A stretch of DNA of 64,000 nt from Candidatus Poribacteria bacterium (GTDB lineage Bacteria > Poribacteria > WGA-4E > PCPOR2b), in assembly GCA_965218095.1 (NCBI GenBank), contig OZ244587.1, positions 5,376,001 through 5,440,000 on the forward strand, in the 5' to 3' direction. A program made the position numbers and the translations under genes. Each line of letters starts with the position of its first letter. Within the stretch, counting starts at the first letter, position 1. Shown piece after piece: positions 15,075-64,000 of this stretch. The notes below the pieces were generated by a model. It did no database searches, was not told the origin of the DNA, and worked only from the letters and a program-made list of their open reading frames with translations.

Positions 15075-15279
15075 ACGTTGGGCCGATATATGGTGGAATC
15101 CACGAAACACCTGTGCTTTGCGATTGCCTCTAATTACGTGCATCTCGGTGCAATTTTTCGCCCATATTTACATGAATTTTCGGTAATTTTTGTAACAATG
15201 TAATTTCTGAATTAACCGCTACATAGGGAGTCATGGCGTGTAGTTGAGGTCAAAACCACACTCACTAGAGATTTTCATG

Positions 15280-47600: not shown

Positions 47601-47732
47601 CAGCGTCCGTTGGCGACGGTGGTCGTCGGGGGTTTGGTCACATCAACCATTCTGACATTGTTGGTGATTCCCGCACTTTATAAGTGGTTCTCCGTTCGGA
47701 TTGAGCCGGAAGCCGTATCCGCAGCCAATTAG
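44613..47732 (+). CDS. czcA: CzcA/CusA heavy-metal RND permease
   Basis: LPVDAFPDVT, AIGMMVDG, RLRPVLMTA; GGAGG before ATG 44613. Confidence 0.95.
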   Translation: MHKIIEFALHRRTLIIVIGILVMVAGYYSYRQLPVDAFPDVTPALVQVFTLTEGLAPEEVERYVTYPVEVAMNGLPHLKEIRSVSNFGLSVVNIYFKDGTDIYFARQLVGERLQLAREGMPEGFGEPEMGPITTGLGQILFYFVEDEDRAYDLFELRTIQDWLIKFNLQTVPGVTEVLSIGGEVKQFHILVRPDDLLRYDLTLDEIVETVKANNANVGAQFIVKNSEEYIVRSVGLAEKISDLEQIVLKSKDGTPVYLNQVADVTIGGEIRRGLTTINGQSETVVGMVLKLIGENTSTVIRDVKTRMEAVNKVLPPGIEVKTYYDQATLISKCVKTVTDALIQGIILVAIVLLVFMSGLRPSVVVAIAIPFSIFFAFILMNAFGISANLMSLGGLAIAIGMMVDGTIVMVENVDRHLRMSNPLASRLQVVARACTEVARPIVFAISIIIIVFLPLFTLGGVEGKTFRPLAYTVALAMGGSLIFALLMAPVAASLLMRRPRQREGAATDGNESRIVQFLVIPYRPVVCLFVRFRSLAVGLAVLMLAVGAIIFPFLGSEFVPRLNEGDLLIRATMAPSISLLDARDTILHLERDMQEKFPEVTQIVTRVGRGEVGAHADPVNNAEIFIRLKEQREWTSAKTLDELYAKMSHTFEDFPGVQLNFSQPIAIAVDELLTGVKAELAIKIFGPDMEVLKEKAAEVETVIRTIKGAADVQKDQVTGTPQLRITIDHAAIARYGINVEDVQRVIQTAVGGEEAGQIFEGIRRFDILVRYTPESRRSLETIGHILISAPDGVKVPLDELTTIEDIVGPRQITRENNQRFITVQTNVRGRDIGSFVEEAQEAIDASVQFPPGYLVSWGGQFELQQEANKRLSLVVPITLLIVFLLLFSSFNSLKNALLIILNIPLALVGGVVGLWLTGQNLSVPASVGFIALFGIALENGMVLVTYLNLLLRDGTPMDEASVEGACQRLRPVLMTAITTTLGLIPLLVSQGTGSEVQRPLATVVVGGLVTSTILTLLVIPALYKWFSVRIEPEAVSAAN

Positions 47733-47912
47733 GGAATAGGATAACCCACAAGCAGATTCTGGTTTCTCCATACTGTTAGCTCCTCTGCGACGCTCAACCT
47801 GACCGTTGCTTTCCCGACTTTTCCCGGTTCAATTTCCGGATTGAAACTTGAACCTGAGTTATGGTAGACTTTCTTATAACAGATTACTTTGACCCAGTAA
47901 GGAGATGAATCA

Positions 47913-49175
47913 ATGAGCCAAACAATTCACGAAATGATCCGTTCAAAAGCCCAATCCGCCAAAGCCGCCATGCGGAAACTCTCCAGCACATCGGTTGATG
48001 TGCGCAATGGTGCGTTGCTGGCGATGGCAGATAGCATCTTAACGTTCAAGGACAAAATCCAGGAAGCCAATCAGATGGATCTGGAGGAAGGACAAAAAAC
48101 GGGACTCGCCGAACCGCTTATGCAGCGACTGGCATTGGATGAGAAGAAGATTGCGCGGATGGCGGATAATCTGAGGCAGGTTGCTGCCTTGCCAGATCCA
48201 ATTGGAGAGGTCGCACATATTCGGGAGCGGCCCAACGGTCTACAAATAGGGCGCGTCAGTGTCCCAATCGGGGTGGTCGGCGTCATCTATGAATCACGTC
48301 CCGATGTTACCATTGAGGTCTCTGCCTTATGTATCAAGTCCGGCAACGGTGTCATCTTGCGCGGTGGTTCAGAGGCGATTCGTTCTAACATGACACTTGC
48401 CAGCATTCTGAGCGAAACTGCGGAGCGGGAAGGTATAAAGAATGCTGTCCAGTTTGTTGATATTACAGATCGGAAAGCGGTACAAGAGATGATTTCAATG
48501 GCGGATCTGATTGATCTGATTGTCCCACGCGGAAGTCAGGAATTTATCCGTTATATCATGAAAACGTCGGATATACCTGTTGTTGGACATGCGGACGGAA
48601 TCTGCCATGTTTACGTCGATGAGGCGGCTGACATCGATATGGCAGAGGAGATCTGTATCAACGCAAAAATCGGATACAAAGTCGCTGTTTGCAACGCGAT
48701 GGAAACCCTGCTCGTCCACGAGAAGATCGCCCCTGGCTTTCTCCCGTCAATGTGTGAGAAATTCGCCGCCGAAGGAGTTGAACTGCGCGGGTGTGAGCAA
48801 ACGCGAGGGATATGTCCAGACCTCCTCCCTGCTACCGAAGAAGATTGGAGAACAGAATACCTCGATCGCATCCTATCAATTCGAGTCGTCTCAGATTTCG
48901 ACGCAGCGGTGGAGCATATCGAAACCTACGGCTCACACCACTCGGACACGATTGTGACGGAGAACTACACCACAGCGCAACGCTTCCTCAAGGAGGTTGA
49001 CTCGGCGGCGGTCTATGTCAACGCGAGCACCTGCTTCACCGATGGTTACGAATTTGGACTCGGCGCCGAGGTCGGCATCAGCACACAAAAGCTGCACTGC
49101 CGGGGTCCCATGGGGCTTGAGGGGCTGACAAGCTATAAGTACATTATCTACGGGAATGGGCAGGTGCGGACGTAG
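47913..49175 (+). CDS. proA: Glutamate-5-semialdehyde dehydrogenase
   Basis: IYESRP, VCNAMETLLV, GAEVGISTQKLHCRGPMGL. Confidence 0.97.
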   Translation: MSQTIHEMIRSKAQSAKAAMRKLSSTSVDVRNGALLAMADSILTFKDKIQEANQMDLEEGQKTGLAEPLMQRLALDEKKIARMADNLRQVAALPDPIGEVAHIRERPNGLQIGRVSVPIGVVGVIYESRPDVTIEVSALCIKSGNGVILRGGSEAIRSNMTLASILSETAEREGIKNAVQFVDITDRKAVQEMISMADLIDLIVPRGSQEFIRYIMKTSDIPVVGHADGICHVYVDEAADIDMAEEICINAKIGYKVAVCNAMETLLVHEKIAPGFLPSMCEKFAAEGVELRGCEQTRGICPDLLPATEEDWRTEYLDRILSIRVVSDFDAAVEHIETYGSHHSDTIVTENYTTAQRFLKEVDSAAVYVNASTCFTDGYEFGLGAEVGISTQKLHCRGPMGLEGLTSYKYIIYGNGQVRT

Positions 49176-49304
49176 TTAGCTTTCCTTTTTTCGTTCAACA
49201 ATTCATACGGTCTACTAAAGCAAAATTCACAAACGAATCTTGACAATAAAGGTTGAATTATATAAACTTAAGTCTTTAACTGAAGTTATTTCAAGGGGTC
49301 GTCT

Positions 49305-50192
49305 ATGACTGATCGTAACAAGCAAGAACAGGTAGAGACAGAAGTCGCCTACCAGACTTTTTCTGAGTTTCTGCAAAACACTCCCCCGAATCAATTAGGG
49401 TATATATCAGATTTAGCCGTATCACAAAACGTAGGCCCATATCCTAACATTGAAAAGAAAATTAACGCACCTGAATTGAGACTCCACTGTCTGCATGAAT
49501 TGTGCAATGGAGTTCGATTTTTTCGCTGCATCGATCTTCCTGTCGACAGAAAATCTTTAGATCATCGTACTATTAACTTGTATGTTAAGTATCAATGCTC
49601 CAATTGCAAAGAAACACTAAAAGTATATGCTTTGGCGGCGAAAATTGATATAATTGGAAAACTTCACGGGGTGTGTTATAAGTTAGGTGAATTTCCTCCG
49701 TACGGACCGCCTGTTCCGTCAAGACTTATCAAACTAATTGGCCCAGATAGGGATATTTTTCTAAAAGGACGTAGATGCGAGAATCAGGGGCTTGGTATAG
49801 GTGCTTTTGCTTATTATCGACGGGTAGTGGAGAATCAAAAGAATAGAATTTTGGAAGAAATTGTCAAAGTATCGGAGAAAATCGAGGCATCACAGGACAA
49901 AATTAATACATTACGCAAAGCGATTAACGAAACGCAATTTAGCACAGCCCTTAAAATGACAAGGGATGTCATGCCAGACAGCCTACTTATTAATGGTCAG
50001 AATCCAATGCTTTTGTTGCATGGTGCGCTTAGTCAGGGCGTGCATGAATTACCTGATGAGGAATGTCTGGAACTTGCTAGCACTGTTAGGCTCGTTCTAG
50101 GCGAACTGTCTGAAAGATTATCCATCCTCTTAAAAGACAAAGCAGAGTTGACGAAAGCTATATCCACATTAATGCATCATGAAAATAGCTAG
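49305..50192 (+). CDS. Hypothetical AT-rich protein with Cys pairs and a DUF4145-like helical C-terminus
   Basis: CLHELC, CSNC, GIGAFAYYRRVVE, LSQGVH; first gene of island. Confidence 0.7.
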   Translation: MTDRNKQEQVETEVAYQTFSEFLQNTPPNQLGYISDLAVSQNVGPYPNIEKKINAPELRLHCLHELCNGVRFFRCIDLPVDRKSLDHRTINLYVKYQCSNCKETLKVYALAAKIDIIGKLHGVCYKLGEFPPYGPPVPSRLIKLIGPDRDIFLKGRRCENQGLGIGAFAYYRRVVENQKNRILEEIVKVSEKIEASQDKINTLRKAINETQFSTALKMTRDVMPDSLLINGQNPMLLLHGALSQGVHELPDEECLELASTVRLVLGELSERLSILLKDKAELTKAISTLMHHENS

Positions 50193-51015
50193 GTTCTGTT
50201 GATATTTCATCGTAACCAGAGAATCGTGGCAACGAGACTCAGAAATCCCAAATACCTTACAGCTAATTTATCAAACCGAGAGGAGATACGTCTATATTGC
50301 TTGATTTTGTTGATGAAACATTCCACCAGATGCCTCTGTTGGTATAGATGCACATCATAAGTGCGTGAATCACGGCGGTTGGCACGTGGCGGTATCACCG
50401 GCACTGCACCCCTACGGGTTATCGACTCAATAAATGCCATAGCGTCATATGACGTGTCGGCTATCACATACTCACTGCTATATCCGTCAATCAACGCTTC
50501 AGCACAAATAATGTCGTGCCGTTGACTGGCAGTCAACATAAAACGTAATGGATTGCCTAAGCCATTGACGGCGATGTGAATCTTGGTTGAAAAGCCACCC
50601 CGACTGCGTCCGAGTGCTTGTGAGGCTTGACCCCCACTTGTTTTCAATGCACCCGCAGCACATGGGTGCGCCCGAATGATAGTGGTGTCAATGATGAGCC
50701 ACTCCATATCAGGGTCTTGGACAAAATGGTGGTGCAACCGTTGAAAGATACCTTTATCGCACCATCGAGCGAATCGTTTATAGACGCTGTTCCAGTTGCC
50801 ATAGGTGTCTGGCAGAATCCGCCATTGAGCACCGCTACGGGTCGCCCAGAGAACAGTTTCGATAAAGCGGCGTGTAGAAGCTTCGTTGCCAACATAGATG
50901 GTCGGACAAGTTAGAAGAAACGAGTATATCTTTTTCCATTGGTCATCGGGTAAGGTTATTGGCATCATTCTTCTATTATGCCACAACCTTATACTCAAAT
51001 GTCAACAGAACCTAG
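50189..51015 (-). mobile_element. IS5-family element with uninterrupted transposase ORF (50207-50968)
   Basis: CTAG-GTTCTGTTGATATTT ... AAATGTCAACAGAAC-CTAG; IDTTIIRAH, ADTSYD, RHLVECFINKIK. Confidence 0.93.
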
Positions 51016-51472
51016 TGAGGTTGCCGCGGTCAATATCGGAGATCTCAAGGATAATACGCTCACTATCCGGCAGAGCAAAACGGATCAACTCGGCGAGGGA
51101 CGGGTGTTGTTTGTTGGGGATGAGACGGTGCAGGTCATCGAGGAACTTAAAGCGAAAGCGACCATCTCACGCGGGGCTTTGTTCCGCCGGGTGCTGAAGA
51201 ACGGCAAAATGACGACCACACGGCTCACGCCAGAAGCAATCAGAGAGATCGTTAAGAAACGCAGTCAAGGCATTCGAGAAGTCAAAGGTCGGGTGTCGGG
51301 GCACTCGTTACGGGTTGGCTCGGCGGTGTCATTGGCTAGGGGGAATGCGTCGCTAGTGGAAATGCAGGTTGATGGCAGATGGAAGGATTCTCGGATGCCG
51401 TCTCATTATGCAAGCGCAGAAATCGCTCAAAATAGTGCGACGGCGCGGATTAAGTATGGGAAACGGAGGTAA
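51014..51472 (+). pseudogene. C-terminal half of a Cre-like tyrosine recombinase truncated by IS5
   Basis: SEVAAVN, SKTDQLGEG, SGHSLRVG, GRWKD, HYA; starts just after the catalytic-Arg position. Confidence 0.9.
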
Positions 51473-51482
51473 CTGAGAAGAA

Positions 51483-51510
51483 ATATCCGATAAGGGGGCT
51501 TATCGGATAT
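51483..51510. other. Symmetric dif/lox-like recombination site candidate 1
   Basis: ATATCCGATAA-GGGGGC-TTATCGGATAT (11-6-11). Confidence 0.7.
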
Positions 51511-51643
51511 TCCAGCTACAGCATCCAATAGATTCGTGCGTAACTCCTTTACTTATAAGTTTTTGTTGCTGACATTTTATCAAAATTACACATAAATTAT
51601 AAGCCTAAAACTTTTAATTGGGCAATTTTTGCAGGAGGTCTAA

Positions 51644-53629
51644 ATGTCCGAAACAACAGAACAATCTGATCTTGGCTCGACACAGGGGAGTGAAAAAGTG
51701 AGATTTGACGAAAAACTCATCAATCTGCTCAAAACCAATCCAGACTTTGTTGATGACACAGATGAATTGCTCCGCGACAGAATCAAACACTTCGCATGGC
51801 AGTTTGACCATGACCTGATCAACCTGTTACTCACTGATAAGGAGATAGAATCAAAGTTTTTTGAGGAGGTCAATGGACGTTGGATTTTCAACAATAATAC
51901 CTTTGTTGACTACATCAATGATAAGAACTTCCTTGACGATTCCTATACTCGATTTCGCAATAAGGTTGGCTTGAACATTGGCGATAAATTCCTCCGCGAA
52001 CGGGAGGAAGTAGCACTTGTTTTTCCTTATAAGGACTGCGTGCTGGAAGGAGGGCAGACGAAGGAGGAAGAAAAACGTCGCGAGATTTTTTTTAATGAAC
52101 TTCTGGCCCAAGACGAAATTAACCGGATGCTCGATCCGAAGGTGCTTACCAACTGGAAACGCCATACTGCTAACGGTGAGGAAGATGTGACCGACATCCG
52201 GCGGGCTGAGAACGGACTAATCCGTGAGAACCTTCTCATCAAGGGGAATAACCTCATTGCACTCCACTGTCTGAAACAGCTATTCCGGGGGCAGGTAAAA
52301 CTGATTTACATTGACCCTCCGTACAATACCGGAAGTGACAGTTTTGGATATAACGACAGCTTTAACCACTCCAGTTGGCTAACGTTTATGAAAAATCGGC
52401 TAGAAGTTGCAAGCCAATTATTAAGAGCTGATGGAGTTATTTTTGTTCAGTGCGACGATAATGAACAAGCGTATCTGAAAGTGTTAATGGATGAGCTTTT
52501 CGGTAATAAACATTTTGTCTCAAATTCTGCTGTCATAGTAAACAGAGGGGGCAGAGACTATGGGGGGATTGCGCGAACCCATGAATACCTGCTTATATAT
52601 TCAAAGGAACCCGGAACAGAACTCAATCAAATGGAAGAAAAAAATAAGAAGTTTGATTATGTAGATGAAATCGGTGGCTTTAACCTAATGGAGTTAAGAA
52701 ATCGCAATATCCGATTCAACGTCGAAAACCGGCCCAATTTGTGTTACCCATTTTATGTTAATCCGACTGATCCAGACGCAGCAGATTTATTGGAAGTATC
52801 CTTGGAACAAAAGGAGGGATTTGTTGAGGTGATGCCATTACAATCGCAAGGGGTGCAAACAGTTTGGAGGTGGGGCAAGGAAAAAGCACGCGCATACTTA
52901 AATACAGAAATCAAAGGAAAAGCGAAACGGGATGGAGGCTATATGATTGTCCAAAAACACAGAAAATCTACCAAACGGCAAAGAAGCATCTGGGATGAGA
53001 AGGAATTTATAAACGAGAGGGGAACTGAACACATAAAAGCACTATTCACTCAAAGGGTCTTTGACTACCCAAAGTCAGAACATCTGATTTCACGGATTAT
53101 CGAACTCGGCAGCGATGTAGGAGACATTGTGCTAGATTTCCACCTAGGCAGCGGCACAACTGCTGCTGCTGCGCATAAGATGGACAGGCAATACATCGGC
53201 ATTGAGCAAATGGATTACGTCGCAAACATTCCCGTTGAAAGGCAGAAAAAGGTGATTGCCGGCGAGCAGGGTGGCATTTCTGAATCTGTCAATTGGCAGG
53301 GTGGTGGTGACTTCATCCATTGCGAACTGATGCCATACAACGGGGCATTCACGGAACGGATCCTGTCAGCACAATCTACCAGAGAACTTTTGGACATCTG
53401 GCGTGAGATGTCCAGAGAATCTTTTCTGAACTGGTATGTCAAACCTGAGAGACCGGAAGGAGCGGAAGCCCACTTCATCGCCATCAACGATGTGGATAAA
53501 CAGAAAACCCTGTTGATGGGGTTGCTTGATAAGAACCAGCTCTATGTCCATCTTTCCGAAATAGACGATGTGGATTTGGGGATCAGCGAGGAAGACAAAG
53601 CACTTAATCGTGAGTTTTATTGTGAGTAA
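51644..53629 (+). CDS. mod: Type III R-M methyltransferase (Mod)
   Basis: IKGNNL, IYIDPPYN, WLTFMKNRL, PKSE, DFHLGSGTT. Confidence 0.95.
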   Translation: MSETTEQSDLGSTQGSEKVRFDEKLINLLKTNPDFVDDTDELLRDRIKHFAWQFDHDLINLLLTDKEIESKFFEEVNGRWIFNNNTFVDYINDKNFLDDSYTRFRNKVGLNIGDKFLREREEVALVFPYKDCVLEGGQTKEEEKRREIFFNELLAQDEINRMLDPKVLTNWKRHTANGEEDVTDIRRAENGLIRENLLIKGNNLIALHCLKQLFRGQVKLIYIDPPYNTGSDSFGYNDSFNHSSWLTFMKNRLEVASQLLRADGVIFVQCDDNEQAYLKVLMDELFGNKHFVSNSAVIVNRGGRDYGGIARTHEYLLIYSKEPGTELNQMEEKNKKFDYVDEIGGFNLMELRNRNIRFNVENRPNLCYPFYVNPTDPDAADLLEVSLEQKEGFVEVMPLQSQGVQTVWRWGKEKARAYLNTEIKGKAKRDGGYMIVQKHRKSTKRQRSIWDEKEFINERGTEHIKALFTQRVFDYPKSEHLISRIIELGSDVGDIVLDFHLGSGTTAAAAHKMDRQYIGIEQMDYVANIPVERQKKVIAGEQGGISESVNWQGGGDFIHCELMPYNGAFTERILSAQSTRELLDIWREMSRESFLNWYVKPERPEGAEAHFIAINDVDKQKTLLMGLLDKNQLYVHLSEIDDVDLGISEEDKALNREFYCE

Positions 53630-53673
53630 ACATCTATCAACTGCCGACTACTAAAATGTTAGGGGAGAATGAG

Positions 53674-54231
53674 ATGAACAAAATGTATTCATTTGAGGAC
53701 AACGTAGACTATGCCGACAAGAATCGAAATCATGAGCGTTGGAATCAAGCATATCGCTTCTTTTTTCCTGAAATGTCTCATATGGAAGAGATTCCTAAGA
53801 AGGATAAACGTCAGAGGGTCGGAATCGACTGGATAGTCTATCTGAAAGATGGAACGCAATATAACATAGATGAAAAGGTGGACTGGAAAGGATACCCTCG
53901 TTTTCCTATAGAAATCTGGCAAGCCTATAACAAACAGTATCTCGGTTGGGCATTGAAAGAAGGTCAGGAGACAGATTATATTGCCTATCTTGTTGATCCC
54001 GATCAAGACTATTATCTGATTCCTTATAAAGAGCTGAAAGATGTTTATCGTAGAAATGAGCAGCAGTGGTTACCCAATGCCAAATATCGTCAAAACGGTT
54101 TTGTCTATGGGAAAACGTGGAATAACACAGTAGATGGTGAACCGTGGAATACTCACAATGTTTGTGTGCCGTTTGATGTTCTAATGGATCATATTCCTGC
54201 TATACAGTTATGGAATCCGAACAAAAATTGA
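53674..54231 (+). CDS. Putative PD-(D/E)xK-fold nuclease
   Basis: GID-x13-DEK, then PIE, GW, TDYIAY pattern. Confidence 0.65.
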   Translation: MNKMYSFEDNVDYADKNRNHERWNQAYRFFFPEMSHMEEIPKKDKRQRVGIDWIVYLKDGTQYNIDEKVDWKGYPRFPIEIWQAYNKQYLGWALKEGQETDYIAYLVDPDQDYYLIPYKELKDVYRRNEQQWLPNAKYRQNGFVYGKTWNNTVDGEPWNTHNVCVPFDVLMDHIPAIQLWNPNKN

Positions 54232-54254
54232 ATAAAATTTACAAGGAGACGCTG

Positions 54255-56906
54255 ATGCGGGATCTATTTAACCATCAACGACCATTTCTTTATCAAGACT
54301 TTGATGATAGTCCGCTTTTTTTTAGAACTTCGGATGTAGAGATCCCTGAGAGTATTACGCGGAATCTGAATCCCACATTTGAGATTCGTGAGTATCAAGA
54401 GGAAGCGTTTGCGAGATTCATTCACTGTTTCAATGAAGATTTCACAGGCAAGGAGAAGCCGTTACATCTGCTGTTTAACATGGCGACTGGCAGCGGTAAA
54501 ACGTTTATCATGGCGGGGCTGATACTCTATCTTTACGAGAGGGGGTATCGGGATTTTCTTTTTTTCGTCAACTCTACCAACATCATTAAAAAGACGGAGG
54601 ACAACTTCCTGAATCCGCTCGCCTCAAAATATCTCTTTAACAGGGAGATCCATATTGGAGGGAGGCGAATCAGATTGACGGAGGTTGAGAGTTTTGAAGG
54701 AGTCAACCATAACGACATCAACATCTGTTTTACCACGATTCAGCAGCTTCATTTGGACATGACGACGGATAGGGAGAATGCGCTCACTCTGGAGGATTTC
54801 GCGGACAAGAAGATCGTCCTCTTATCTGACGAAGCGCATCACATGAATACCAGCACTCAACGGGAACTCTTTGAAAGTTGGGAAAAAACGGTGGAGCGTA
54901 TATTCAAGTCCAACGCAGACAATCTACTATTGGAGTTCACCGCCACACACGACTACGAAAATAGTGCGATGGTCGAGAAGTATCGGAACAAAGTTGTCTA
55001 CCGTTACGATCTGAAAGACTTCCGTAATCATAGGTACTCAAAGGATATTGAGCTCGTGAGGTCGGATTTTGGTCAGGAGGATCGGATGTTACAGGCAATC
55101 ATCCTGAATCACTATAAGCAGCATGTTGCGGCGGAATATGGGATTCAACTGAAACCGGTGATACTGTTCAAGGCGCAGAAGACAATCGCTCAATCACGAG
55201 AGAACAAGGCAGATTTCCACAAGCTGATTGATGAACTTACTGGAAGCCAGATTGACAGGATTAGGGCGTCGGAGGTTGAGGTGGTGCAGCGAGCGTTCCG
55301 CTTTTTTGATGAGAACTGCATCACTTCAGGACAGTTGGCGCAACGTCTGAAATCGGATTTTCAGGAGAGATATTGTCTCTCTGACAACAGCAAGGAGGAG
55401 AAGGAAACCAATCAGATTCTCGTTAATACTCTTGAGGACAGAGACAACCCGATCCGTGCAATCTTTGCGGTGGAGAAACTCAATGAGGGGTGGGATGTCC
55501 TTAATCTCTTTGACATTGTTCGTTGTTATGAAACTCGTGATTCAAGAAACAACAGACCGGGCAAAACGACGATTCGTGAGGCACAGCTTATCGGGCGCGG
55601 GGCACGGTATTTTCCCTTTGTCCTGCCTGAAAGCGATGACGGTCCCAACCGCTCTATAGGCGATGACAAGTTTCGCAGGAAATTCGACAGAGATCTTGAT
55701 CATGACCTCCGTGTGCTGGAAGAACTTCACTATCATAGCATCAACGATTCGAGATACATTACTGAAATCCGCAGTGCACTGGTTAAGCAAGGTATCATCG
55801 ACGAAACGGTAGTGCCTCGAAAACTGAAATTGAAAGATTCATTCACGGAAACGGATCTCTACCAATACGGAGTTGTCTGGTTGAATGAACGTGAACCGAG
55901 AGACTATCAAGATGTCATATCTTTTGCGGATTTGGCAAATCTGAGTGTGAGAGAGCAAAATCATGAACATACTATTCACGGGGCGACCGGGGGCATGACG
56001 ACCGTAATGGAGGATAGGGAAGCTGAGGGCAGGCAGGAGATAGGCAGGCATCCCATACGACTGGTTGAGATTGAACGGAATATCGTTCAATCTGCGATTG
56101 CGCGAAATCCGTTTTTCAAGTTTTCATCACTCAAGCGATATTTTCCTCAGTTGAGAACGATGGACGAGTTTCGGACCTCGGAAAACTACCTCGGTGGGCT
56201 GGCAATCACCTTCAGAGGGGATTTGTCGCAGTTGGAGGAGAACCCTTTGGAAAAGCTCAGGGCGTGTTGTGATTTGTTAGAGCAAGTCGAATCCGAACTG
56301 CGTGAACGAATTACCGATTATAAAGGCACAACCGACTTTCGCAGGAAACAGATTAACGCTATTTTCACTGATAAAACGCTGAACCTCAATGTTGGCAGCT
56401 CTCGCGTTGATGAGGGGTTCGACGAGCGTTTCATAAAAATAAAAGATTGGTTTGCCTTCGATGCGCTCTATGGAACGAGTGAGGAGCGGGAGTTGGTGAA
56501 ACTGCTAGACCGATGGATAAGAAATTCGGGGGAAATCTATGAGGGGATCTATCTGCTCCGTAACGAGAGACATTTTGCGCTCTATAACTTCTCTGACGGA
56601 CGAGCGTTTGAACCCGACTTTGTGCTGTTCTTAGACGCAAAACAGAAGGATGCGCTGACCTACCAACTTTTCATTGAACCGAAAGGTAAGCATCTTCAAC
56701 CCAAAGATCGCTGGAAAGAAAGTTTTTTGAAAGAGATCGATGTTGAGCGGATCGGTGGTGATTACCACAGAAGGCTCATGATAGAGAATAGAAAATACCG
56801 CATCATTGGCATCCCCTTCTTTGACTCGAATCATAAAGCTGAATTCATAGACACCCTCAATACGACGTTGGAAAATGCCTGCAATCGAAGCGCATTGTCC
56901 ATGTGA
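54255..56906 (+). CDS. res: Type III R-M restriction subunit (Res)
   Basis: MATGSGKT, DEAH, EGWD, QLIGRGAR, PDF..IEPK. Confidence 0.95.
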   Translation: MRDLFNHQRPFLYQDFDDSPLFFRTSDVEIPESITRNLNPTFEIREYQEEAFARFIHCFNEDFTGKEKPLHLLFNMATGSGKTFIMAGLILYLYERGYRDFLFFVNSTNIIKKTEDNFLNPLASKYLFNREIHIGGRRIRLTEVESFEGVNHNDINICFTTIQQLHLDMTTDRENALTLEDFADKKIVLLSDEAHHMNTSTQRELFESWEKTVERIFKSNADNLLLEFTATHDYENSAMVEKYRNKVVYRYDLKDFRNHRYSKDIELVRSDFGQEDRMLQAIILNHYKQHVAAEYGIQLKPVILFKAQKTIAQSRENKADFHKLIDELTGSQIDRIRASEVEVVQRAFRFFDENCITSGQLAQRLKSDFQERYCLSDNSKEEKETNQILVNTLEDRDNPIRAIFAVEKLNEGWDVLNLFDIVRCYETRDSRNNRPGKTTIREAQLIGRGARYFPFVLPESDDGPNRSIGDDKFRRKFDRDLDHDLRVLEELHYHSINDSRYITEIRSALVKQGIIDETVVPRKLKLKDSFTETDLYQYGVVWLNEREPRDYQDVISFADLANLSVREQNHEHTIHGATGGMTTVMEDREAEGRQEIGRHPIRLVEIERNIVQSAIARNPFFKFSSLKRYFPQLRTMDEFRTSENYLGGLAITFRGDLSQLEENPLEKLRACCDLLEQVESELRERITDYKGTTDFRRKQINAIFTDKTLNLNVGSSRVDEGFDERFIKIKDWFAFDALYGTSEERELVKLLDRWIRNSGEIYEGIYLLRNERHFALYNFSDGRAFEPDFVLFLDAKQKDALTYQLFIEPKGKHLQPKDRWKESFLKEIDVERIGGDYHRRLMIENRKYRIIGIPFFDSNHKAEFIDTLNTTLENACNRSALSM

Positions 56907-57016
56907 GCGTGGAATCGACGCTGATTATTGAAGCACTGTCGTCTCCGTTGCCTGATAGCCCACAGGCGTAAAACTCCATAACGGTATTGAAAATCAGATC
57001 ACTAAACATAACGCAA

Positions 57017-57044
57017 ACATCCGATAATTATTCTTATCGGACAT
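57017..57044. other. Symmetric dif/lox-like recombination site candidate 2
   Basis: ACATCCGATAA-TTATTC-TTATCGGACAT (11-6-11). Confidence 0.7.
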
Positions 57045-57176
57045 CTTTGCCCGCCTTAACTTTCTTACCTCCGCCTCAATCCCCTCCAAAAAAGAGTTGC
57101 AATCTTCATGGTAAATCTGCCATAATATGGCAAGTCTACCATGAAGTGAGAGGAAGATATAATTTTGAACGAAGCG

Positions 57177-57515
57177 ATGAAAGATGTAACTTGGATTGGG
57201 GATTCTCGCGAGCAAGTCCGACGTTTTCCTAAAGCCGTAAGACGGGCAGTCGGTGAAGCGTTACGTTTTGCCCAGCGCGGTGCGAAACACCCTAAAGCAA
57301 AACCGATGCGGGGCATTGGATTTGGCGTGTGGGAAATTGTCGCACGTTACGATACAGACACATATCGTGCTGTTTACACTGTCAAAATTGGCGAGAAAAT
57401 CTATGTGCTCCATGCGTTTCAAAAGAAATCGACTCGCGGCATCAGAACCCCAAAACAGGAAATTGATTTGATAAAACAGCGACTCACCATCGCGCAACAA
57501 CTGGAGGAAAAATAA
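57177..57515 (+). CDS. HigB/RelE-family (Gp49-like) toxin
   Basis: WIGDS, GVWEI, YRAVY, VLHAFQKKS. Confidence 0.92.
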   Translation: MKDVTWIGDSREQVRRFPKAVRRAVGEALRFAQRGAKHPKAKPMRGIGFGVWEIVARYDTDTYRAVYTVKIGEKIYVLHAFQKKSTRGIRTPKQEIDLIKQRLTIAQQLEEK

Positions 57516-57844
57516 TGAATGAAGATGTTAAAGTCGAGCAGAGCTCCGGGAATGTGTTTAAGGATTTGGGATTTGCTGATGCCGAAGCCGAGCGAGCGTT
57601 GTTGAAGGTAGATTTAGCTCTTGAGATCTACAACATCATTGAAGCGCAAAAACTCACACAGGCAAAAGCAGGGAAAATTCTCGGTGTTGACCCCTCCGAC
57701 ATTTCAAGACTGAAGGCTGGTGATTTTAACCGCTTTAGCGTAGAGCGACTGTTTACACTTCTCAATCGTTTTAACCGTAACATTGAGATTCGGATTACAC
57801 CGGCAGAAGATAGAGGGGGACATCAGCGGGTCGTTGCGGTTTAG
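57515..57844 (+). CDS. HigA-like XRE HTH antitoxin
   Basis: SSGNVFKDLG, LTQAKAG, FSVERL. Confidence 0.92.
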   Translation: MNEDVKVEQSSGNVFKDLGFADAEAERALLKVDLALEIYNIIEAQKLTQAKAGKILGVDPSDISRLKAGDFNRFSVERLFTLLNRFNRNIEIRITPAEDRGGHQRVVAV

Positions 57845-57864
57845 GGTCGTTTATCACACACACA

Positions 57865-58212
57865 TTGAAGGACATTAAGGAGATAGTTAAATATGGGAAT
57901 TTACATGGCTTAGAGCCTGAGCAACTCGCTCGGATTGGTATGTTTTATCTTGAGGAGGCAGTATTAGAAACTTTGCATGAGGCAAGGCATAGCGAGGATG
58001 AGGAGGAGCAGTGGCTTCAGCCCGCAGATATTAGTAAGAGGTTAGGTATTCGTGCTGCTGAGTATATTCGTGCTCCTGATTATCCAGCTATTATGGCTGC
58101 TTTGGATAAACTACTGGGGACGTGGTGTGTTGAGCAGAAACATCCAAATGAAAGCGGTGCCCCTTATCGACTCACGGAGAAGGAGTTTGAACGTCGCTGT
58201 GATGATTTATAA
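57865..58212 (+). CDS. Hypothetical protein (wHTH-like)
   Basis: LEEAVLETL..ADISKRLGI..YRLT. Confidence 0.55.
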   Translation: MKDIKEIVKYGNLHGLEPEQLARIGMFYLEEAVLETLHEARHSEDEEEQWLQPADISKRLGIRAAEYIRAPDYPAIMAALDKLLGTWCVEQKHPNESGAPYRLTEKEFERRCDDL

Positions 58213-58295
58213 AAACCACAAGGCGGGCATACGTCCCCATGCCCCCTTTGTGGCAAAACGTCAAGAGATGGGGATTTGAAAGGAGATTTTTTATT

Positions 58296-58547
58296 ATGGC
58301 AACATCAGTGTTTGCAGGTTATTTGATAAAGGGGATAGATGAGACAAGATGTCCAAAAGAGTATAAATTGAGTAAAGGGGAAGAAGGCAATTCCTATACT
58401 GTATATCTCCGTCTTGAACCTATTGAAACGAATAGTGATGTATATGACGTGCCTCCTGGCATTGATTCAGAGCTTCGGACATTCTGGGGCGAACTTCTCA
58501 AAGAACGTGTCCTCAAAGTGATTAGAGAAAATAAGAATTCTCTATGA
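58296..58547 (+). CDS. Hypothetical protein
   Basis: AAGGAG RBS, 83-aa ORF. Confidence 0.55.
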   Translation: MATSVFAGYLIKGIDETRCPKEYKLSKGEEGNSYTVYLRLEPIETNSDVYDVPPGIDSELRTFWGELLKERVLKVIRENKNSL

Positions 58548-58769
58548 TCAGATGTCAAGTATTGCGAGAGAGAAGATGGTCCGATGCTTGCAGTTCACGG
58601 GACCACTCTTGAAAAAATACGAGCAGACCAAGTAGAGGCAGGGAGAAATAGATGGGGTAGCGTTTTAGAACTTCTTGTGTATTATCCTAATAATGGAATG
58701 CGGGAGGAACTCAATAGAAGGCATGTATTCAGAGAAAATGCAGTGGCAATTAAATTTCAGAAAGATCGT

Positions 58770-59030
58770 CAAACCTAAACACTTAGAAATTATTCGTTGG
58801 GGAGATAATCCTGAATGTCCTTATTGCGAAAGCGGCCATGTTGCGCCAAAGCAAGTATATGGTAAAGTAGGGCGTTGGAATTGTCATAGTTGTAAATCCA
58901 GTTTCAATGTTTTGCAAGGAACACTATTTCAGGGAACGAAGATTCCGCTTCAGAAGTGGTTTATCGCTATTTTTTTGATGGGCGATGCGAAGAAATCATT
59001 GTCCAGTTGCCAACTTGCCCGACACTTAGA
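58770..59030 (+). mobile_element. IS1595-family transposase N-terminal remnant
   Basis: RWGDNPECPYC, CHSC, GTLFQGTKIPLQKW, SSCQLARHL. Confidence 0.85.
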
Positions 59031-59102
59031 CGGGAAATTCGCCTGTAAATTTCTCAAGAAGCAGATAGTTAGTGCATTGATTCATCAGTTATACGTACTG
59101 TC

Positions 59103-59121
59103 AAATGTCAATACGCCCTAG
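59103..59121. mobile_element. Orphan IS5-type terminal repeat
   Basis: AAATGTCAATACGCCCTAG. Confidence 0.6.
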
Positions 59122-59177
59122 CAACTTGGGTTATTTTAAGAAACCGTTTCAAAAGAAGATTAAAGGAGGGAATTGAA

Positions 59178-59435
59178 ATGAATTTAACTGTTGAACTAAC
59201 AACTGATCAAGTTGTTGGTTTTGTCCAACAGATGCCAGCGGAAGAAAGACAGTCACTACTGCTCGCAATTGCAGAGCAGGCAGCAGCCAATCGAGAGGCG
59301 CGTATAGACCGTGCTGAAGCACAGTTGCGGCAATTATGTACGGATCGGGGGTTGGATTGGGATGCCATGACCGAAGCGGAGCGCGAAAATTTTGTTGATG
59401 ACCTCATCCACGAGGATCGTGAATGCAACCAATAG
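59178..59435 (+). CDS. Putative antitoxin
   Basis: Acidic 85 aa, overlaps PIN gene. Confidence 0.75.
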   Translation: MNLTVELTTDQVVGFVQQMPAEERQSLLLAIAEQAAANREARIDRAEAQLRQLCTDRGLDWDAMTEAERENFVDDLIHEDRECNQ

Positions 59436-59830
59436 CCGTTTGCGATACAAACATTCTGTTGTCAGGTATCGGTTGGAGAGGTAGTCCTTATCGTTGTCTT
59501 GAACTGGCATGGCAGGGTAGCGTTGAAGGGTTGACCTGTTCTGAAATACTGGACGAATTGGCAGAGAAATTAACGACTAAACTCAACTTTTCGCTGTCTG
59601 AAACTACCGATGTAATCGCAGATCTCCTTGGTTTCTTGCAGATGGTCAAGATTACCAACACGCTCAAAGCCATCCCCGCCGATTCGGAGGACGACAAAGT
59701 CATTGAATGTGCCGTTGTGGGGGAGGCAACCCATGTTGTGACCGGTGATCGCCGTCATCTGTTGCCACTTGGCAGCTATCAAGGTGTCCTTATTGTCACA
59801 GCGGCAGACTTTCTTGCACAGTTTTCATGA
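59423..59830 (+). CDS. PIN-domain (VapC-like) toxin
   Basis: DTNILLS, DSEDDKVIECA, VTGD.HLL. Confidence 0.92.
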   Translation: MQPIAVCDTNILLSGIGWRGSPYRCLELAWQGSVEGLTCSEILDELAEKLTTKLNFSLSETTDVIADLLGFLQMVKITNTLKAIPADSEDDKVIECAVVGEATHVVTGDRRHLLPLGSYQGVLIVTAADFLAQFS

Positions 59831-59865
59831 AATGAAAAAGATCTACTGAAGATAAAAGTTGAGAA

Positions 59866-60706
59866 CTAGGTTCTGTTGACATTTGAGCATAAGGTTGTGG
59901 CATAATAGAAGAATGACGCCAATAACCTTACCTGATGAACAATGGAATAAGATATACCGGTTTCTTCTAAGCTGTCCCACCATCTATGTTGGCGACGAAG
60001 CTGCTACACGCCGCTTCGTCGAAGCTGTCCTGTGGGTGACTCGTAGCGGCGCTCAATGGAGACTTCTACCAGACCCTATGGCAAATGGAACACCCGCTAC
60101 AAGCGGTTTGCACGGTGGTGCGACAAAGGTATCTTCACACAGATGCACCACCACTTTGCCTCTGACCCCGATATCGAGTCGCTTATTGTGGACAGTACCA
60201 TCTGCCGCGCTCACCCATCTGCGGCGGGCGCCTTAAAAAAAAGGGTGGCACTGAAAACCAAGCATTAGGTCGGTCTCGGGGCGGTTTCAGTACAAAAAAT
60301 CACATCACCGTTGACGGACTAGGCAATCCCCTAAGAATTCATCTGACCCCCGGTCAGAGACATGACATAACTGAGGCGGAAGGGTTGATAATCGGATATA
60401 ACAGTGAATATGTGATTGGAGACAAGGGGTACGATTCGGACGCTTTTATCGCGGTTATTGAGGCGAATGGAGCGATTGCGGTGATACCGCCAAAAAGTCA
60501 TCGTGTTGACCAAAGAACGTATGACAAACGCTTATACAAAGAGAGGCATCTACAAAGAGAGACATCGGGTTGAATGTTTCATCAACAAGATAAAATGGTA
60601 TCGTCGTATCTTCTCTTGGTTTGAGAAGCTAGCTGTCCGTTATTTTGGATTTCTCAGCTTTGTCGCCACTCTTATATGGCTCCCTTGAAATGTCAACAGA
60701 ACCTAG
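59866..60706 (+). mobile_element. IS5-family element, defective (extra frameshift ~60075, 16-bp duplication ~60535-60566)
   Basis: Perfect TIRs GTTCTGTTGACATTT with CTAG on both sides; A8 slippery run. Confidence 0.93.
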
Positions 60707-60885
60707 TACGTACAGTTTACTTTTCCCGCATGGTAGCCTATAAGATTATTGACAACTGTTTAGACCGTGACACGTTGATGCTTTTTACAAAAGACAAAGT
60801 CACCTTTTTCGCTATACTTTCTTTCAGAATTGTGCTAAACTTTTGTTATCTTTCAGGCATGTTCAAACGATTTTAGGAGGCAAAC

Positions 60886-61779
60886 ATGGCAAACTTAGAT
60901 TACAAAATCGGTGTTGTGGGTGTGGGCAGGATGGGAGCAAACATCGCACGCCACTTAAATGATGAAGGATTTCCGGTCGTCGTTGTCTATGACGCTGACG
61001 CAGACCGCGCGAAGTCTCTCGGCGAAGAGATTGGCGCGGAAGCAACGAATCGGCTTGCACGAGTGACGGAGCTCGCGGAGTATATCATCACCGTCGTTAC
61101 CGACGACAACGCGATGCGGCAGATCTTCTTGGAAGATGCCGAAGACAGCCTGCTCAAAGGCGCAAGTGGAACGCTGTTTATCAATTGCGCGACAATCTCG
61201 CCGCAGGTTCATGTGGATGTCGAAAAGCTGGCGGAGAGGCACGGCGCATCGAGTCTTGAGGGCTGTATGGCAAGTAGTATCACCCAAGCCCGCGAAGGTA
61301 CGCTGTATCTGATGTGTGGTGGGAAAGAGGAGGCGTTCAACCGCGCAAAACCGATCCTCGATTCAATGAGCATCTCTCTCCGTTACATCGGTGAGGCAGG
61401 ACGGGCTGCCCAGGTCAAAGCCCTTGTGAATATGGTCATGAATATCAACACCGCGGGCCTGGCAGAAGGACTAGGGCTTGGAGCTGCGCTTGGTTTGGAT
61501 TTGACAATACTGCAAGAGGTCTTCGCCCAGACCGGGGCAAACTCCCGTGTCCTAGAAACAGATGGCGAAGATATGCAGAATCGCGACCACGAGTGCTACT
61601 TCTCTTCGGCGCACGCATCGAAGGACTCGGGAATTGCGCTTGACCTTGCTAAAGCCGCCGGATTGAACCTGCCGCTCGCCGAGGCGACCAAAAAGCAGTA
61701 TGACAAAATGATCGAGCTTGGCAAAGGGGAATTGGATAAATCTGGCGTTGCTGAACTCACTTTCCCCGGTAGAGGGTAA
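60886..61779 (+). CDS. NAD(P)-dependent beta-hydroxyacid dehydrogenase family protein
   Basis: GVGRMG, VKALVN, KD.GIA. Confidence 0.9.
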   Translation: MANLDYKIGVVGVGRMGANIARHLNDEGFPVVVVYDADADRAKSLGEEIGAEATNRLARVTELAEYIITVVTDDNAMRQIFLEDAEDSLLKGASGTLFINCATISPQVHVDVEKLAERHGASSLEGCMASSITQAREGTLYLMCGGKEEAFNRAKPILDSMSISLRYIGEAGRAAQVKALVNMVMNINTAGLAEGLGLGAALGLDLTILQEVFAQTGANSRVLETDGEDMQNRDHECYFSSAHASKDSGIALDLAKAAGLNLPLAEATKKQYDKMIELGKGELDKSGVAELTFPGRG

Positions 61780-61808
61780 CCCGAGTTGCTACCTTGATAA
61801 GTGTGAAA

Positions 61809-61833
61809 GGGCAGGCACAAGGCCTGCCCCTAC
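61809..61833. repeat. REP-like palindrome
   Basis: GGGCAGGCACAAGGCCTGCCCCTAC. Confidence 0.7.
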
Positions 61834-61875
61834 GGTTGCTAGGGTAAAAACTAGTTCGATGTTAGCCGCACGACT

Positions 61876-63063: not shown

Positions 63064-63188
63064 GAACGTGATGCGTAAAACGTAATCAATCAGCAATTTG
63101 CAATTGAGATTTGCGCCATCTGCCTCGACTGTGGCCTTACCGTTTAACAGGAAATGTCTGGGATGCCTTGGTAGTTTTGCGCATGCGT

Positions 63189-64000
63189 TTATTCCGCGTT
63201 GCAGTAAAGCAGATATGGCCTGTGTTTCTTGGTAAATTCCTCCACCTCCGCCCCCCAACCCTGAACAATTTCGGTGGGTGATTCTCCACCCAGAAGCCTC
63301 AACCGCAAGCGATCCGTCCCAGCGAGCAAATCAAAGGTGTATCGCCCCCGATTTTCTCGAAACGCAAATCGATCCGGATAGTCACGCATGATAGTTGAGA
63401 TGAGATGAAGAGCGACTTCGATCGGTTTCAATTCCTCCCGATTCATGACGTGAACCTGCACGCCGTGGCACTGTTGATTAGCGTGTTTGGAAAAGGTGGG
63501 TGTAAAATGTACAGGACGGAAGCGAACGCCCGGCAAGTCGAAATCGTTCAACCTTTCTGCCCATCTATCTGCGTCAATCCATGGCGCCCCGATCCACTCA
63601 AACGGCTTCGTGGTGCCGCGGCCTTCGGAAAGGTTCGTGCCTTCGATGAGACAGGTCCCGGGATACAGCATCGCAGTTTCGAGGATCGGCATATTGGGTG
63701 AGGGAGGCGCCCACGGCAGCCCAGTCTGATCGTACCACATCGATCTTGCCCAACCGCACATTGGAACAACCTCAAGCTGGAGATTCAAATCGAGTTCCGC
63801 TTTGAAAAGTTGCGCAAGTTCACCGACCGTCATACCGTGCCGGATTGGGAGCAGATACGCTCCAACAAAGGATTGGAACGCCGGTTGTAACAGATTCCCC
63901 TCAATACGATCGCCCCGGATCGGATTTGGGCGATCGAGGACGAGAAAATCCACATTGCCGGCTGCGGCCGCTTTCATCGCTAGAAGCAACGTCGAAATGT
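63189..64000 (-). CDS. namZ: DUF1343 exo-beta-N-acetylmuramidase NamZ-like, C-terminal part (start outside window)
   Basis: VLDRPNP, RHGMTVGE, PPSPNMP, EGRGTTKPFE. Confidence 0.9.
   Translation of the reverse strand, partial: ISTLLLAMKAAAAGNVDFLVLDRPNPIRGDRIEGNLLQPAFQSFVGAYLLPIRHGMTVGELAQLFKAELDLNLQLEVVPMCGWARSMWYDQTGLPWAPPSPNMPILETAMLYPGTCLIEGTNLSEGRGTTKPFEWIGAPWIDADRWAERLNDFDLPGVRFRPVHFTPTFSKHANQQCHGVQVHVMNREELKPIEVALHLISTIMRDYPDRFAFRENRGRYTFDLLAGTDRLRLRLLGGESPTEIVQGWGAEVEEFTKKHRPYLLYCNAE

Follow-up and report, generated by a model that had tools for sequence, protein, structure and literature searches.

Gene content of the R-M locus

In the window, by which we mean the whole 64,000-nucleotide stretch of DNA analysed, a Type III restriction-modification (R-M) unit lies between two palindromic sites. 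Site A (51483-51510, no strand assigned) is an 11-6-11 dif-type palindrome that reads ATATCCGATAA-GGGGGC-TTATCGGATAT and forms the left boundary of the unit. Site B (57017-57044, likewise unstranded) reads ACATCCGATAA-TTATTC-TTATCGGACAT and forms both the right boundary of the R-M unit and the left boundary of a toxin-antitoxin (TA) cassette. Site A starts 10 nt after the TAA stop codon (51470-51472) of a recombinase-like ORF (50978-51472), the start codon of mod follows 133 nt after site A, and the stop of res at 56906 is separated from site B by 110 nt. The content between the two sites is exactly three ORFs (51644-53629, 53656-54231 and 54210-56906), so the bracketing described in the original prediction agrees with both the coordinates and the ORF list.

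All three ORFs lie on the plus strand. The first, mod (51644-53629), encodes a Type III methyltransferase of 661 aa that matched PF01555 (145.9 bits), PF12564 (73.2 bits) and the PADLOC model MTase_III (604.9 bits). The third, res (54210-56906), encodes a Type III restriction subunit of 898 aa that matched PF04851 (108.8 bits) and PADLOC REase_III (492.4 bits), and it overlaps the end of the middle ORF. Mod combines an N6/N4 methylase with a Type III Mod N-terminal domain, and Res, encoded near mod on the same strand, carries a ResIII helicase-nuclease domain, as expected of a Type III R-M system. The 191-aa ORF between them (53656-54231) had no match in profile searches of Pfam, NCBIfam or PADLOC. 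In the Atlas it led to unnamed, mostly viral clusters with weak NOV_C/PDDEXK_14 leads, and the "nuclease-like" label it had been given could not be upheld on a PDDEXK_14 lead that represents 13% of one neighbouring cluster.

We scanned the window for TCCGATAA-N6-TTATCGGA with up to 2 mismatches. The results showed that sites A and B were the only matches, as the original prediction had claimed, against an expected count of 0.02 (sd 0.14); two or more sites occurred in 0 of 100 dinucleotide-preserving shuffles. The arms of these dif-like sites are symmetric, which fits the action of one recombinase, again as predicted.

Variable island around the R-M unit

The R-M unit, its sites, the TA cassette, a Cre-like remnant and an insertion sequence (IS) are all contained in a variable island of 11.6 kb (49190-60803, unstranded), which is inserted between an aldehyde-dehydrogenase-like gene (47913-49175) and the genes at 60886-63258. 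These flanking genes neighbour each other in at least 11 relatives, with gaps of 0-460 bp in G003, G009, G011, G014, G015, G016, G018, G020, G021, G022 and G023. Taken as a whole, the island does not occupy a site, and gaps at the "empty" locus go down to 13 bp in relatives. The IS (50186-51014, minus strand) belongs to the IS4/IS5 family, has terminal inverted repeats and a transposase ORF (50207-50998) with DUF4096 and DDE_Tnp_1 matches, and cuts the Cre-like gene. Related copies lie at 15276-16108 and 59867-60707 of the window and also elsewhere. Since the island is bordered by IS copies and does not sit at a site, other processes have also shaped this region.

We compared the contigs of four public runs with positions 47000-62000 of the window. 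One run (X6) yielded an identical contig of 5,900 nt over 51180-57079, and a contig of the same run joined 49175 to 60851. No joint between sites A and B was present among the 15 of 26 joints listed for the four runs; because contigs lose rare variants, this says nothing on excision. In another run (X1), a contig of low depth (4.2) joined position 51507, the end of the core of site A, to 58270 with 18 other letters between, and site A may have a different neighbour in some other population.

Homologues of res were found in 20 of 40 relatives at 56-62% identity. None of the 11 such loci fetched had a site within 1.5 kb, and with this identity and no site they were rejected as copies of the same cassette. 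A metagenome scan with Res returned 20 loci, whose identity of 55-71% is too low for the same cassette. A second copy of the R-M unit in another context was thus found neither among the relatives nor among the metagenome loci.

Distribution of the motif in the order

The motif (up to 1 mismatch) was detected in 36 of the 41 genomes of the order, with 1-19 copies each, while a reversed-pattern control gave 0 matches in 39 genomes and 1 match in 2. The arm sequence is kept across at least four families, and the spacer varies at a length nearly fixed at 6; a minority of sites have a spacer of 5 or 7. The sites are clustered: of the gaps between sites, 3 of 6 in this genome (G000), 6 of 18 in G017, 5 of 16 in G013 and 4 of 12 in G007 measured 7 kb or less, where 0.05-0.34 such gaps were expected. 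In a scan of viral contigs the 16-base core matched 53, only 4 of which had the extended arms (at least 5 of 6 flanking positions); most of these core matches look like chance or dif-type sites of other organisms.

A single Xer-like recombinase and its upstream site

This genome has one strong Xer-like match, a tyrosine recombinase gene outside the window (contig C1, 860652-861557, minus strand; PF00589, 134.4 bits), with runners-up at 71 bits or less. A tblastn search of the genome with this protein returned the gene itself, a 53-residue fragment and nothing else. NCBIfam models scored 194.9 (XerC), 192.5 (XerD) and 180.8 bits (XerA), below the equivalog cut-offs of 220-335; the protein also fell below the XerS cut-off, and therefore is not a member of the named equivalogs XerC, XerD, XerA or XerS. 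The nearest solved structures were XerA (5hxy, E 3.8e-24) and XerD (1a0p), and the alignment to XerA spans the regions of the conserved R, H-x-x-R, H and Y motifs.

This xer gene has a full site about 111 nt ahead of its ATG, accompanied by two half-sites, TTATCGGACAT, about 86-96 and 16-26 nt upstream of the ATG. We compared 27 poribacterial xer loci, whose orthologues share 72-82% identity. The full site and both half-sites were found at the same positions in 26 of them, and the exception (L038) carries a deletion from the left arm to the proximal half-site. Each of 29 genomes has a single Xer match (E<=1e-20), and all 29 carry the motif; Xer is missing in all 5 genomes that lack it. The other seven of the 12 genomes without an Xer orthologue do have the motif; all are fragmented assemblies of 100-910 contigs, so that xer may simply be unassembled. 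In G008, G012, G026 and G035 the only copy of the motif is the one adjacent to xer.

One Xer-like gene per genome and a 28-bp 11-6-11 site conserved along with it correspond to a single-recombinase Xer/dif arrangement, and the xer-proximal site is probably the chromosomal dif of Poribacteria. By rounded genome sizes, the distance of this site from dnaA amounts to 43-51% of the chromosome in all four one-contig genomes of genus g5, and to 29%, not about 50%, in the present genome, where GC skew was too weak and irregular to locate the terminus. The likely partner of sites A and B, judged by association, is the only Xer-like recombinase of the genome and not the neighbouring Cre-like gene. The original prediction had offered "a host Xer enzyme" as an alternative, and it is this option that the conserved layout upstream of xer and the shared distribution of motif and Xer favour.

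Breakpoints, cassettes and cargo

We inspected where homology between genomes ends, and in each case it ended within the 28-bp site. At one xer locus (L044), a cassette of 973 bp is inserted exactly at the xer-proximal site, and the site is duplicated. The arrays of G017 and G007 have common flanks and interiors that diverge inward from the last site; no recognisable site was found at their left edge. Between the present genome and G003, homology begins at the site adjoining a PD-T4-4 module. These comparisons bear out the expectation that the sites coincide with gene-content breakpoints.

The TA cassette (57045-57858, plus strand), to the right of site B, encodes a Gp49/HigB-like protein (57165-57515) and an HTH_37 antitoxin (57515-57844). 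Copies 88-94% identical occur in G007, G009, G013, G016 and G024, with homology starting inside site B, and in G016 and G009 the cassette is flanked by sites on both sides. Cassettes from an array at 2.86 Mb of the present genome (contig C1, 2859617-2862935) were found singly in other genomes. Most cassettes measure about 0.3-3 kb, and modules of 2.6-5.4 kb lie between sites in relatives. Their orientation is mixed, and some ORFs end, with the stop codon, within a site. The spacer travels with differing sides of the site from case to case, so that no order of strand exchange is concluded.

Defence genes are part of this cargo, as had been predicted. In addition to the Type III R-M unit, a PD-T4-4/PDC-M47 defence pair identified by PADLOC lies between two sites at a second locus of the genome. 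Further array cargo includes an AAA_21 ATPase with DUF4276, an N6_N4 methylase, and ParB-like, DUF559-TPR and FRG-TPR proteins, as well as non-defence genes.

Cre-like recombinases

The ORF that ends next to site A (50978-51472, plus strand; PF00589, 30.3 bits) is the C-terminal half of a Cre-like tyrosine recombinase. It shares 56% identity with residues 158-308 of a full-length copy in the window, a 308-aa open frame at 13918-14844 on the plus strand, whose 5' end is overlain by a degenerate site-like 28-mer (13917-13944). The ORF upstream of the IS is unrelated to the Cre-like gene. The window therefore holds two members of this family, at 13918-14844 and 50978-51472, where three had been counted.

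Evaluation of alternative explanations

The proposal that a Cre-like recombinase acts on the sites, with the R-M unit as cargo of a Cre-like-driven element, is quite improbable on the present evidence. It draws on proximity. The Cre-like ORF stops 10 nt short of site A. Past the site of the PD-T4-4 module, at a distance of 1.7 kb, there is a 323-aa Cre-like gene, which is accompanied in both G000 and G003 by a hybrid site with one degenerate arm. In G013 and G016, Cre-like fragments are found some 2 kb away from the TA cassette and its sites, and a degenerate site covers the 5' end of the full-length copy in the window. However, the neighbour of site A is an IS-truncated C-terminal half, and 27 of 30 Cre-like loci fetched had no site within 1.5 kb, the other 3 having degenerate sites only. 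In addition, 15 of the 41 genomes have no Cre-like match (E<=1e-30) yet up to 12 sites (12 in G036, 9 in G015 and 7 in G014, for example). The family has between 0 and 11 members per genome, a pattern that recalls a recombinase belonging to some other mobile element, and no fixed arrangement of site and half-sites, as at xer, was seen beside its genes. Of the original prediction as a whole, the dif-like sites, the breakpoints, the defence cargo and the host Xer option stood, and the Cre-like partner did not. It is more doubtful still that the palindromes act not in recombination but as hairpins in RNA or DNA (as terminators or REP-like repeats) or as transcription-factor operators, a reading we consider very unlikely. 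The predicted RNA folds are stable (-20.6 and -12.5 kcal/mol, z -5.4 and -4.6), the palindromes lie shortly after stop codons, the minus strand of site B was flagged as terminator-like, and the half-sites near the xer start could be operators. Yet the arm sequence is conserved across four families beyond what mere pairing would need, around a spacer that varies at a near-fixed length of 6, and arm variants such as CCGGTAA versus TTATCGG disrupt pairing with no compensation. The isolated half-sites upstream of xer are unable to form a hairpin, and homology between genomes breaks within the 28-mer. A terminator function was rejected, as on the coding strand site A does not resemble a terminator and neither site is followed by a T-tract.

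A further question is whether the R-M unit itself belongs to the cassettes. The Xer/dif-type sites and the cassette boundaries could be real while the R-M unit merely lies between the ends of neighbouring units, or arrived through an IS or other recombination. No other site-flanked copy of the unit was found in relatives or metagenomes, the island around it has IS copies at its borders and does not occupy a site, and with three genes in 5.5 kb the unit exceeds most cassettes (about 0.3-3 kb). We nevertheless regard this account as unlikely: the sites closely flank the unit, leaving 133 nt to the start codon of mod on one side and 110 nt from the stop of res on the other, and enclose nothing further; the PD-T4-4 module, which also consists of several defence genes, is likewise enclosed by sites, and homology to a relative breaks at its site; and relatives carry modules of 2.6-5.4 kb between sites. 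By analogy with these cases, the R-M unit, which spans about 5.5 kb between sites A and B, is most likely a cassette of this kind, and it is from the same analogy that we infer its mobility.

Proposed model

The reading we favour, and consider fairly probable from sequence comparison, is that the palindromes are recombination sites of the single Xer of Poribacteria and that secondary copies bound mobile cassettes, the R-M unit most likely being one of them. What was observed directly comprises the sites with their conservation and clustering, the link between them and xer, and the homology breakpoints inside the site; binding and recombination of the sites by Xer, and the arrival of the R-M unit by the cassette route, are what we infer from them. 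Under this model, the primary site just upstream of xer, with its two half-sites, would be the probable chromosomal dif, and secondary copies would mark the borders of mobile cassettes, whether single, paired or in arrays. A circular cassette with one site would recombine with a resident site: the two sites would be occupied by four Xer monomers, strand exchange would take place where the arms meet the 6-bp spacer, and the integrated cassette would have a hybrid site on either side. On this view, the R-M unit would stand in a short array (Cre-like remnant, R-M, toxin-antitoxin) within the 11.6-kb variable island. Because the spacers of sites A and B differ (GGGGGC versus TTATTC), its re-excision should be inefficient.

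A broader proposal is put forward only tentatively, as we give it slightly less than even chances: the housekeeping Xer may serve as the integrase of an integron-like chromosomal cassette system, with a primary site upstream of xer and dozens of secondary sites bounding cassettes and Type III R-M, PD-T4-4 and TA modules that are shuffled between arrays and genomes across the phylum. If true, gene-cassette arrays could form by a second and independent route, one that relies on double-strand dif sites in place of attC hairpins. In the literature we found, modules with dif-like sites are essentially confined to Acinetobacter and depend on XerC/XerD. Here they occur in the chromosomes of an uncultivated, sponge-associated phylum that has a single recombinase and sites that are palindromic, and these sites bound whole defence systems in addition to arrays of small cassettes. 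A search of the main texts of the literature found no report that covers both Poribacteria and tyrosine recombinases; dif predictions for other phyla may exist in supplementary files. Should the link to Xer hold, it would define a so far undescribed dimer-resolution module of Poribacteria, supply a 28-bp sequence by which mobile defence cargo could easily be traced in metagenomes, and offer a natural case in which to study how a housekeeping recombinase serves gene exchange without destabilising the chromosome.

Comparison with known systems

Symmetric arms around an asymmetric spacer, and a Cre-like family in the genome, recall Cre/loxP. However, loxP has a 13-8-13 layout where the poribacterial sites are 11-6-11, and Cre-like genes do not generally adjoin the sites. 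Integrons resemble the present system in architecture, with arrays of short, often single-ORF cassettes that each have a terminal palindromic site, and a recombinase gene with a complex upstream primary site (a full site and two repeats that resemble binding sites). The differences lie in the sites, which are 28-bp and of the double-strand 11-6-11 type, and in the arrays, most of which are far from the recombinase gene and of mixed orientation. Integron attC sites are hairpins of 57-141 bp with a GTTRRRY core. We rejected an attC reading, as the 28-bp sites lack this core and the integron-integrase model scored 86.6 bits on the Xer-like protein against a cut-off of 265. An IntI-like C-terminal remnant is present elsewhere in the genome.

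IMEX are elements without their own integrase that insert at dif and end up flanked by one good and one hybrid site, and the cassette at L044 is exactly such a case. Unlike IMEX, most poribacterial units are at secondary sites and, at 0.3-5.5 kb, rank as small cassettes rather than as phages or large islands. The R-M unit itself departs from IMEX in position, being about 1.8 Mb (the shorter arc of the 6.35-Mb chromosome) from the xer-proximal site.

Among single-recombinase Xer systems, the accessible portions of the reports on XerS/difSL (PMC1914069), XerL/dif of Legionellales (PMC9765430), and XerH and XerA (PMC5357621) describe, as here by association, one tyrosine recombinase and one site. 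As in difSL-xerS (PMC1914069), to the extent covered in that text, the poribacterial site lies immediately upstream of the recombinase gene, forming a single module, and as with LME-1 and XerL in the available text of PMC9765430, mobile DNA with a dif mimic would use the site. The closest solved relative of the poribacterial Xer is archaeal XerA. In what they describe of the XerS, XerL, XerH and XerA systems, these sources make no mention of two additional half-sites, numerous secondary sites or arrays of cassettes.

The dif modules of Acinetobacter, which comprise pdif modules on plasmids and chromosomal "dif module islands" (PMC12907356; see also PMC6449649, PMC13141974), have much the same organization: 28-bp 11-6-11 Xer-type boundaries, linear arrays of several modules, modules that recur in different contexts, toxin-antitoxin or adaptive cargo, and no recombinase encoded inside. 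Sites on both sides, differing contexts and boundaries at the sites were found here with the TA cassette, other cassettes and the PD-T4-4 module. In contrast to the XerC and XerD half-sites of Acinetobacter, Poribacteria have one Xer-like recombinase and near-palindromic arms; their modules are chromosomal and in an uncultivated phylum, the primary site by xer has two extra half-sites, and the cargo found here comprises phage-defence genes and small unknown ORFs, not antibiotic resistance. We read this system as a chromosomal, single-recombinase counterpart of the Acinetobacter dif modules, with integron-like arrays.

Two palindromic sites bracket the Type III R-M unit

We located both predicted palindromes at their predicted positions. 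Site A, ATATCCGATAA-GGGGGC-TTATCGGATAT, occupies window positions 51483-51510, 10 nt past the stop of ORF 50978-51472, and site B, ACATCCGATAA-TTATTC-TTATCGGACAT, occupies 57017-57044, 110 nt past the res stop. We then scanned the whole window with the core TCCGATAA-N6-TTATCGGA, allowing up to two mismatches. The results agreed with the original prediction that the window holds no further site: A and B were the sole matches (2 observed, 0.02 expected), and none of 100 shuffles gave two or more. Three ORFs lie between the sites. Type III Mod (51644-53629) and Res (54210-56906) were confirmed; for the 191-aa ORF between them (53656-54231), predicted to be nuclease-like, Atlas returned weak leads, and Pfam, NCBIfam and PADLOC returned no match.

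In the source genome G000 (6.35 Mb, one contig; window at C1:5376001-5440000), the 11-6-11 site is clearly recognisable about ten times. Besides A and B, there is one site near xer (861669), one at 1161189 that is paired with a half-degenerate site at 1163626, and a group of six within 3.3 kb (2859617-2862935). The 1.16-Mb pair flanks a two-gene PD-T4-4/PDC-M47 defence system. The 2.86-Mb cluster repeats a layout of site, ribosome-binding site, short ORF and site, and one of its cassettes encodes RNase H. Two cassette ORFs of this array (locus L007, 9618-9645 and 12905-12933) stop on the left-arm TAA, so the site overlaps coding sequence. An element of some 80 nt containing the inverted repeat CCACAAGG...CCTTTGTGG is also conserved (window 58225-58295; L007 12560-12640); followed by a ribosome-binding site, it precedes small ORFs in both the window and the 2.86-Mb array. 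One contig from public run X1 connects site A to a point within this element.

Sites form cassette boundaries

In four complete genomes, 3 of 6, 6 of 18, 5 of 16 and 4 of 12 gaps between sites measured 7 kb or less (expected counts 0.05-0.34), and the sites thus cluster far beyond random scatter. As the original prediction had proposed, we checked whether sites fall at gene-content breakpoints, and homology between genomes broke inside the 28-mer. Locus L044 carries a 973-bp cassette precisely at its xer-proximal site, which is duplicated, and the old flank is displaced. The arrays of relatives G017 and G007 have common flanks (87-91% identical) and different cassettes, with the right-hand break in the last site. 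G000 and relative G003 have a Cre-like module in common up to the site, beyond which the PD-T4-4 pair is present in G000 only. The toxin-antitoxin (TA) cassette that adjoins site B on the right (57045-57858) has copies of 88-94% identity in five further genomes; the homology starts within the site, and both ends are site-flanked in G016 and G009. Single cassettes of the G000 array were found again in other arrays and in other genomes. The side with which the spacer travels varied by case, so we draw no conclusion on strand-exchange order. These findings indicate that the site-bounded cassette feature is real and conserved.

The predicted cassette idea is largely right. Movement of the R-M unit itself is proposed by analogy. 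We found no second copy of the R-M cassette in another context among res homologues in relatives or in a metagenome scan, and no site A-to-site B junction among the joints listed for contigs of four public runs. Mobility of the R-M unit therefore rests on its likeness to the TA and PD-T4-4 units. A second Type III res paralogue in G000 (C1:3062119-3064734) shows 58% identity and contains one in-frame TGA. A third full-length Cre-like gene (C1:3073056-3073898) lies some 9 kb away from it, and no motif copy was found there.

Six small viral contigs of 4-14 kb (L155, L157, L158, L164, L170 and L188) carry the core of the site with spacer TTAAAG and differing outer arms. These may represent dif mimicry by small phages infecting another group of hosts.

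A conserved site lies upstream of xer

G000 has a single strong Xer-like tyrosine recombinase (301 aa, C1:860652-861557, minus strand); among solved structures, archaeal XerA is its nearest relative. About 111 nt separate its start codon from the upstream site at 861669, and two extra half-sites, TTATCGGACAT, lie in this interval. The full site and both half-sites occupied the same positions in 26 of 27 poribacterial loci with an Xer orthologue (72-82% identity); the exception, L038 (on the same contig as G019), shows a deletion between the full site's left arm and the proximal half-site. The motif was present in 36 of the 41 genomes of the order (1-19 copies each), whereas the reversed-pattern control gave no copy in 39 genomes and one in two. 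All 29 genomes with an Xer orthologue carried the motif, as did seven of the 12 without an Xer match, these seven being assemblies of 100-910 contigs, and five had neither; because kin are not independent, the counts are descriptive and do not serve as statistical tests. The xer-adjacent copy was the sole motif copy in four genomes. In all four one-contig genomes of one genus, the xer-proximal site lay 43-51% of the chromosome from dnaA; in G000 the distance was only 29%, and GC skew was uninformative.

In G019 (L038, L088; xer at C1:1934258-1935163), where the deletion removed the full site upstream of xer, only two motif copies were found, both perfect and 4.4 kb apart (C1:2950336 and 2954802). 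They have an identical spacer in inverted orientation (GAACAA/TTGTTC) and flank DUF6785/DUF6784 and FG-GAP genes. The pair may represent either a dif that has relocated or a segment able to invert. Elsewhere in G000 (C1:2745024-2745215) lies a tyrosine recombinase C-terminal remnant (136-aa open frame, PF00589, 71 bits). Its ending resembles the C-terminus of the integron integrase IntI, and it is probably a dead integron integrase.

Alternative readings of the sites

As partner enzyme, the original prediction named a Cre-like family said to occur three times in the window, or a host Xer enzyme; we found two Cre-like members. The ORF adjoining site A (50978-51472) is a remnant: it aligns at 56% identity with the 308-aa protein of this family (13918-14844), over residues 158-308 of the latter. 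ORF 49305-50192, to the left of the IS that precedes the remnant, is unrelated. The family is multi-copy (0-11 per genome); 15 of the 41 genomes gave no match yet carry up to 12 sites, and 27 of 30 Cre-like loci had no site within 1.5 kb. The Cre-like choice of partner is probably wrong. Cre-like genes near sites look like a separate element that occasionally inserts at a hybrid site or brings one along. A reading of the palindromes as hairpins or terminators fails, given the conservation of arm sequence, the lack of compensation in arm variants, the occurrence of isolated half-sites and the absence of T-tracts.

A degenerate site-like 28-mer (13917-13944; arm matches 10/11 and 7/11) overlaps the full-length Cre-like gene at its 5' end; in that ORF, no ATG, GTG or TTG start codon occurs upstream of 14074.

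The R-M unit lies within a variable island

At least 11 relatives have the aldehyde-dehydrogenase-like gene at 47913-49175 directly adjoining genes 60886-63258. Three more relatives have different insertions of 3-6.7 kb at this place, and one public-run contig joins 49175 to 60851, indicating that 49.2-60.8 kb is a variable island. Its order is an unknown ORF, IS, Cre-like remnant, site A, R-M, site B, TA cassette, small ORFs and a further IS. The insertion point of the entire island is not a site, and the site-bounded structure is internal to it. The IS directly upstream of the Cre-like remnant (about 50186-51014) encodes a DDE transposase between terminal inverted repeats, and two IS4/IS5-type copies in opposite orientation flank the recombinase, R-M and TA block. 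This IS family occurs in G000 at window positions 15276-16108, 50186-51014 and 59867-60707 and in at least six other places (74-96% identity).

A unit of about 700 bp (59145-59869) contains two small ORFs that overlap (59178-59435 and 59423-59830). Seven relatives have copies of it with 87-91% identity at unlinked places, with no motif copy among the matches listed nearby in G007 or G017. This unit may likewise be a small mobile pair, one that uses a different route.

Comparison with known systems

Our literature search, confined to the papers proper, found no paper with both 'Poribacteria' and 'tyrosine recombinase', and no mention of Poribacteria in the papers listed for that name combined with XerC, XerD, integron or 'dif site'. 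Integrons differ from the poribacterial system in recombinase type and site type; their attC sites overlap cassette ORF ends, a likeness to the two 2.86-Mb cassette ORFs that end in a site. The nearest counterparts are the dif modules of Acinetobacter, among them chromosomal module islands (PMC12907356), followed by single-recombinase Xer modules that have dif beside the gene, namely XerS/difSL (PMC1914069) and XerL with its dif-mimicking element (PMC9765430), and then by IMEX (PMC5357621). Unlike the Acinetobacter modules, the system described here has one recombinase and palindromic arms and lies in the chromosomes of another phylum.
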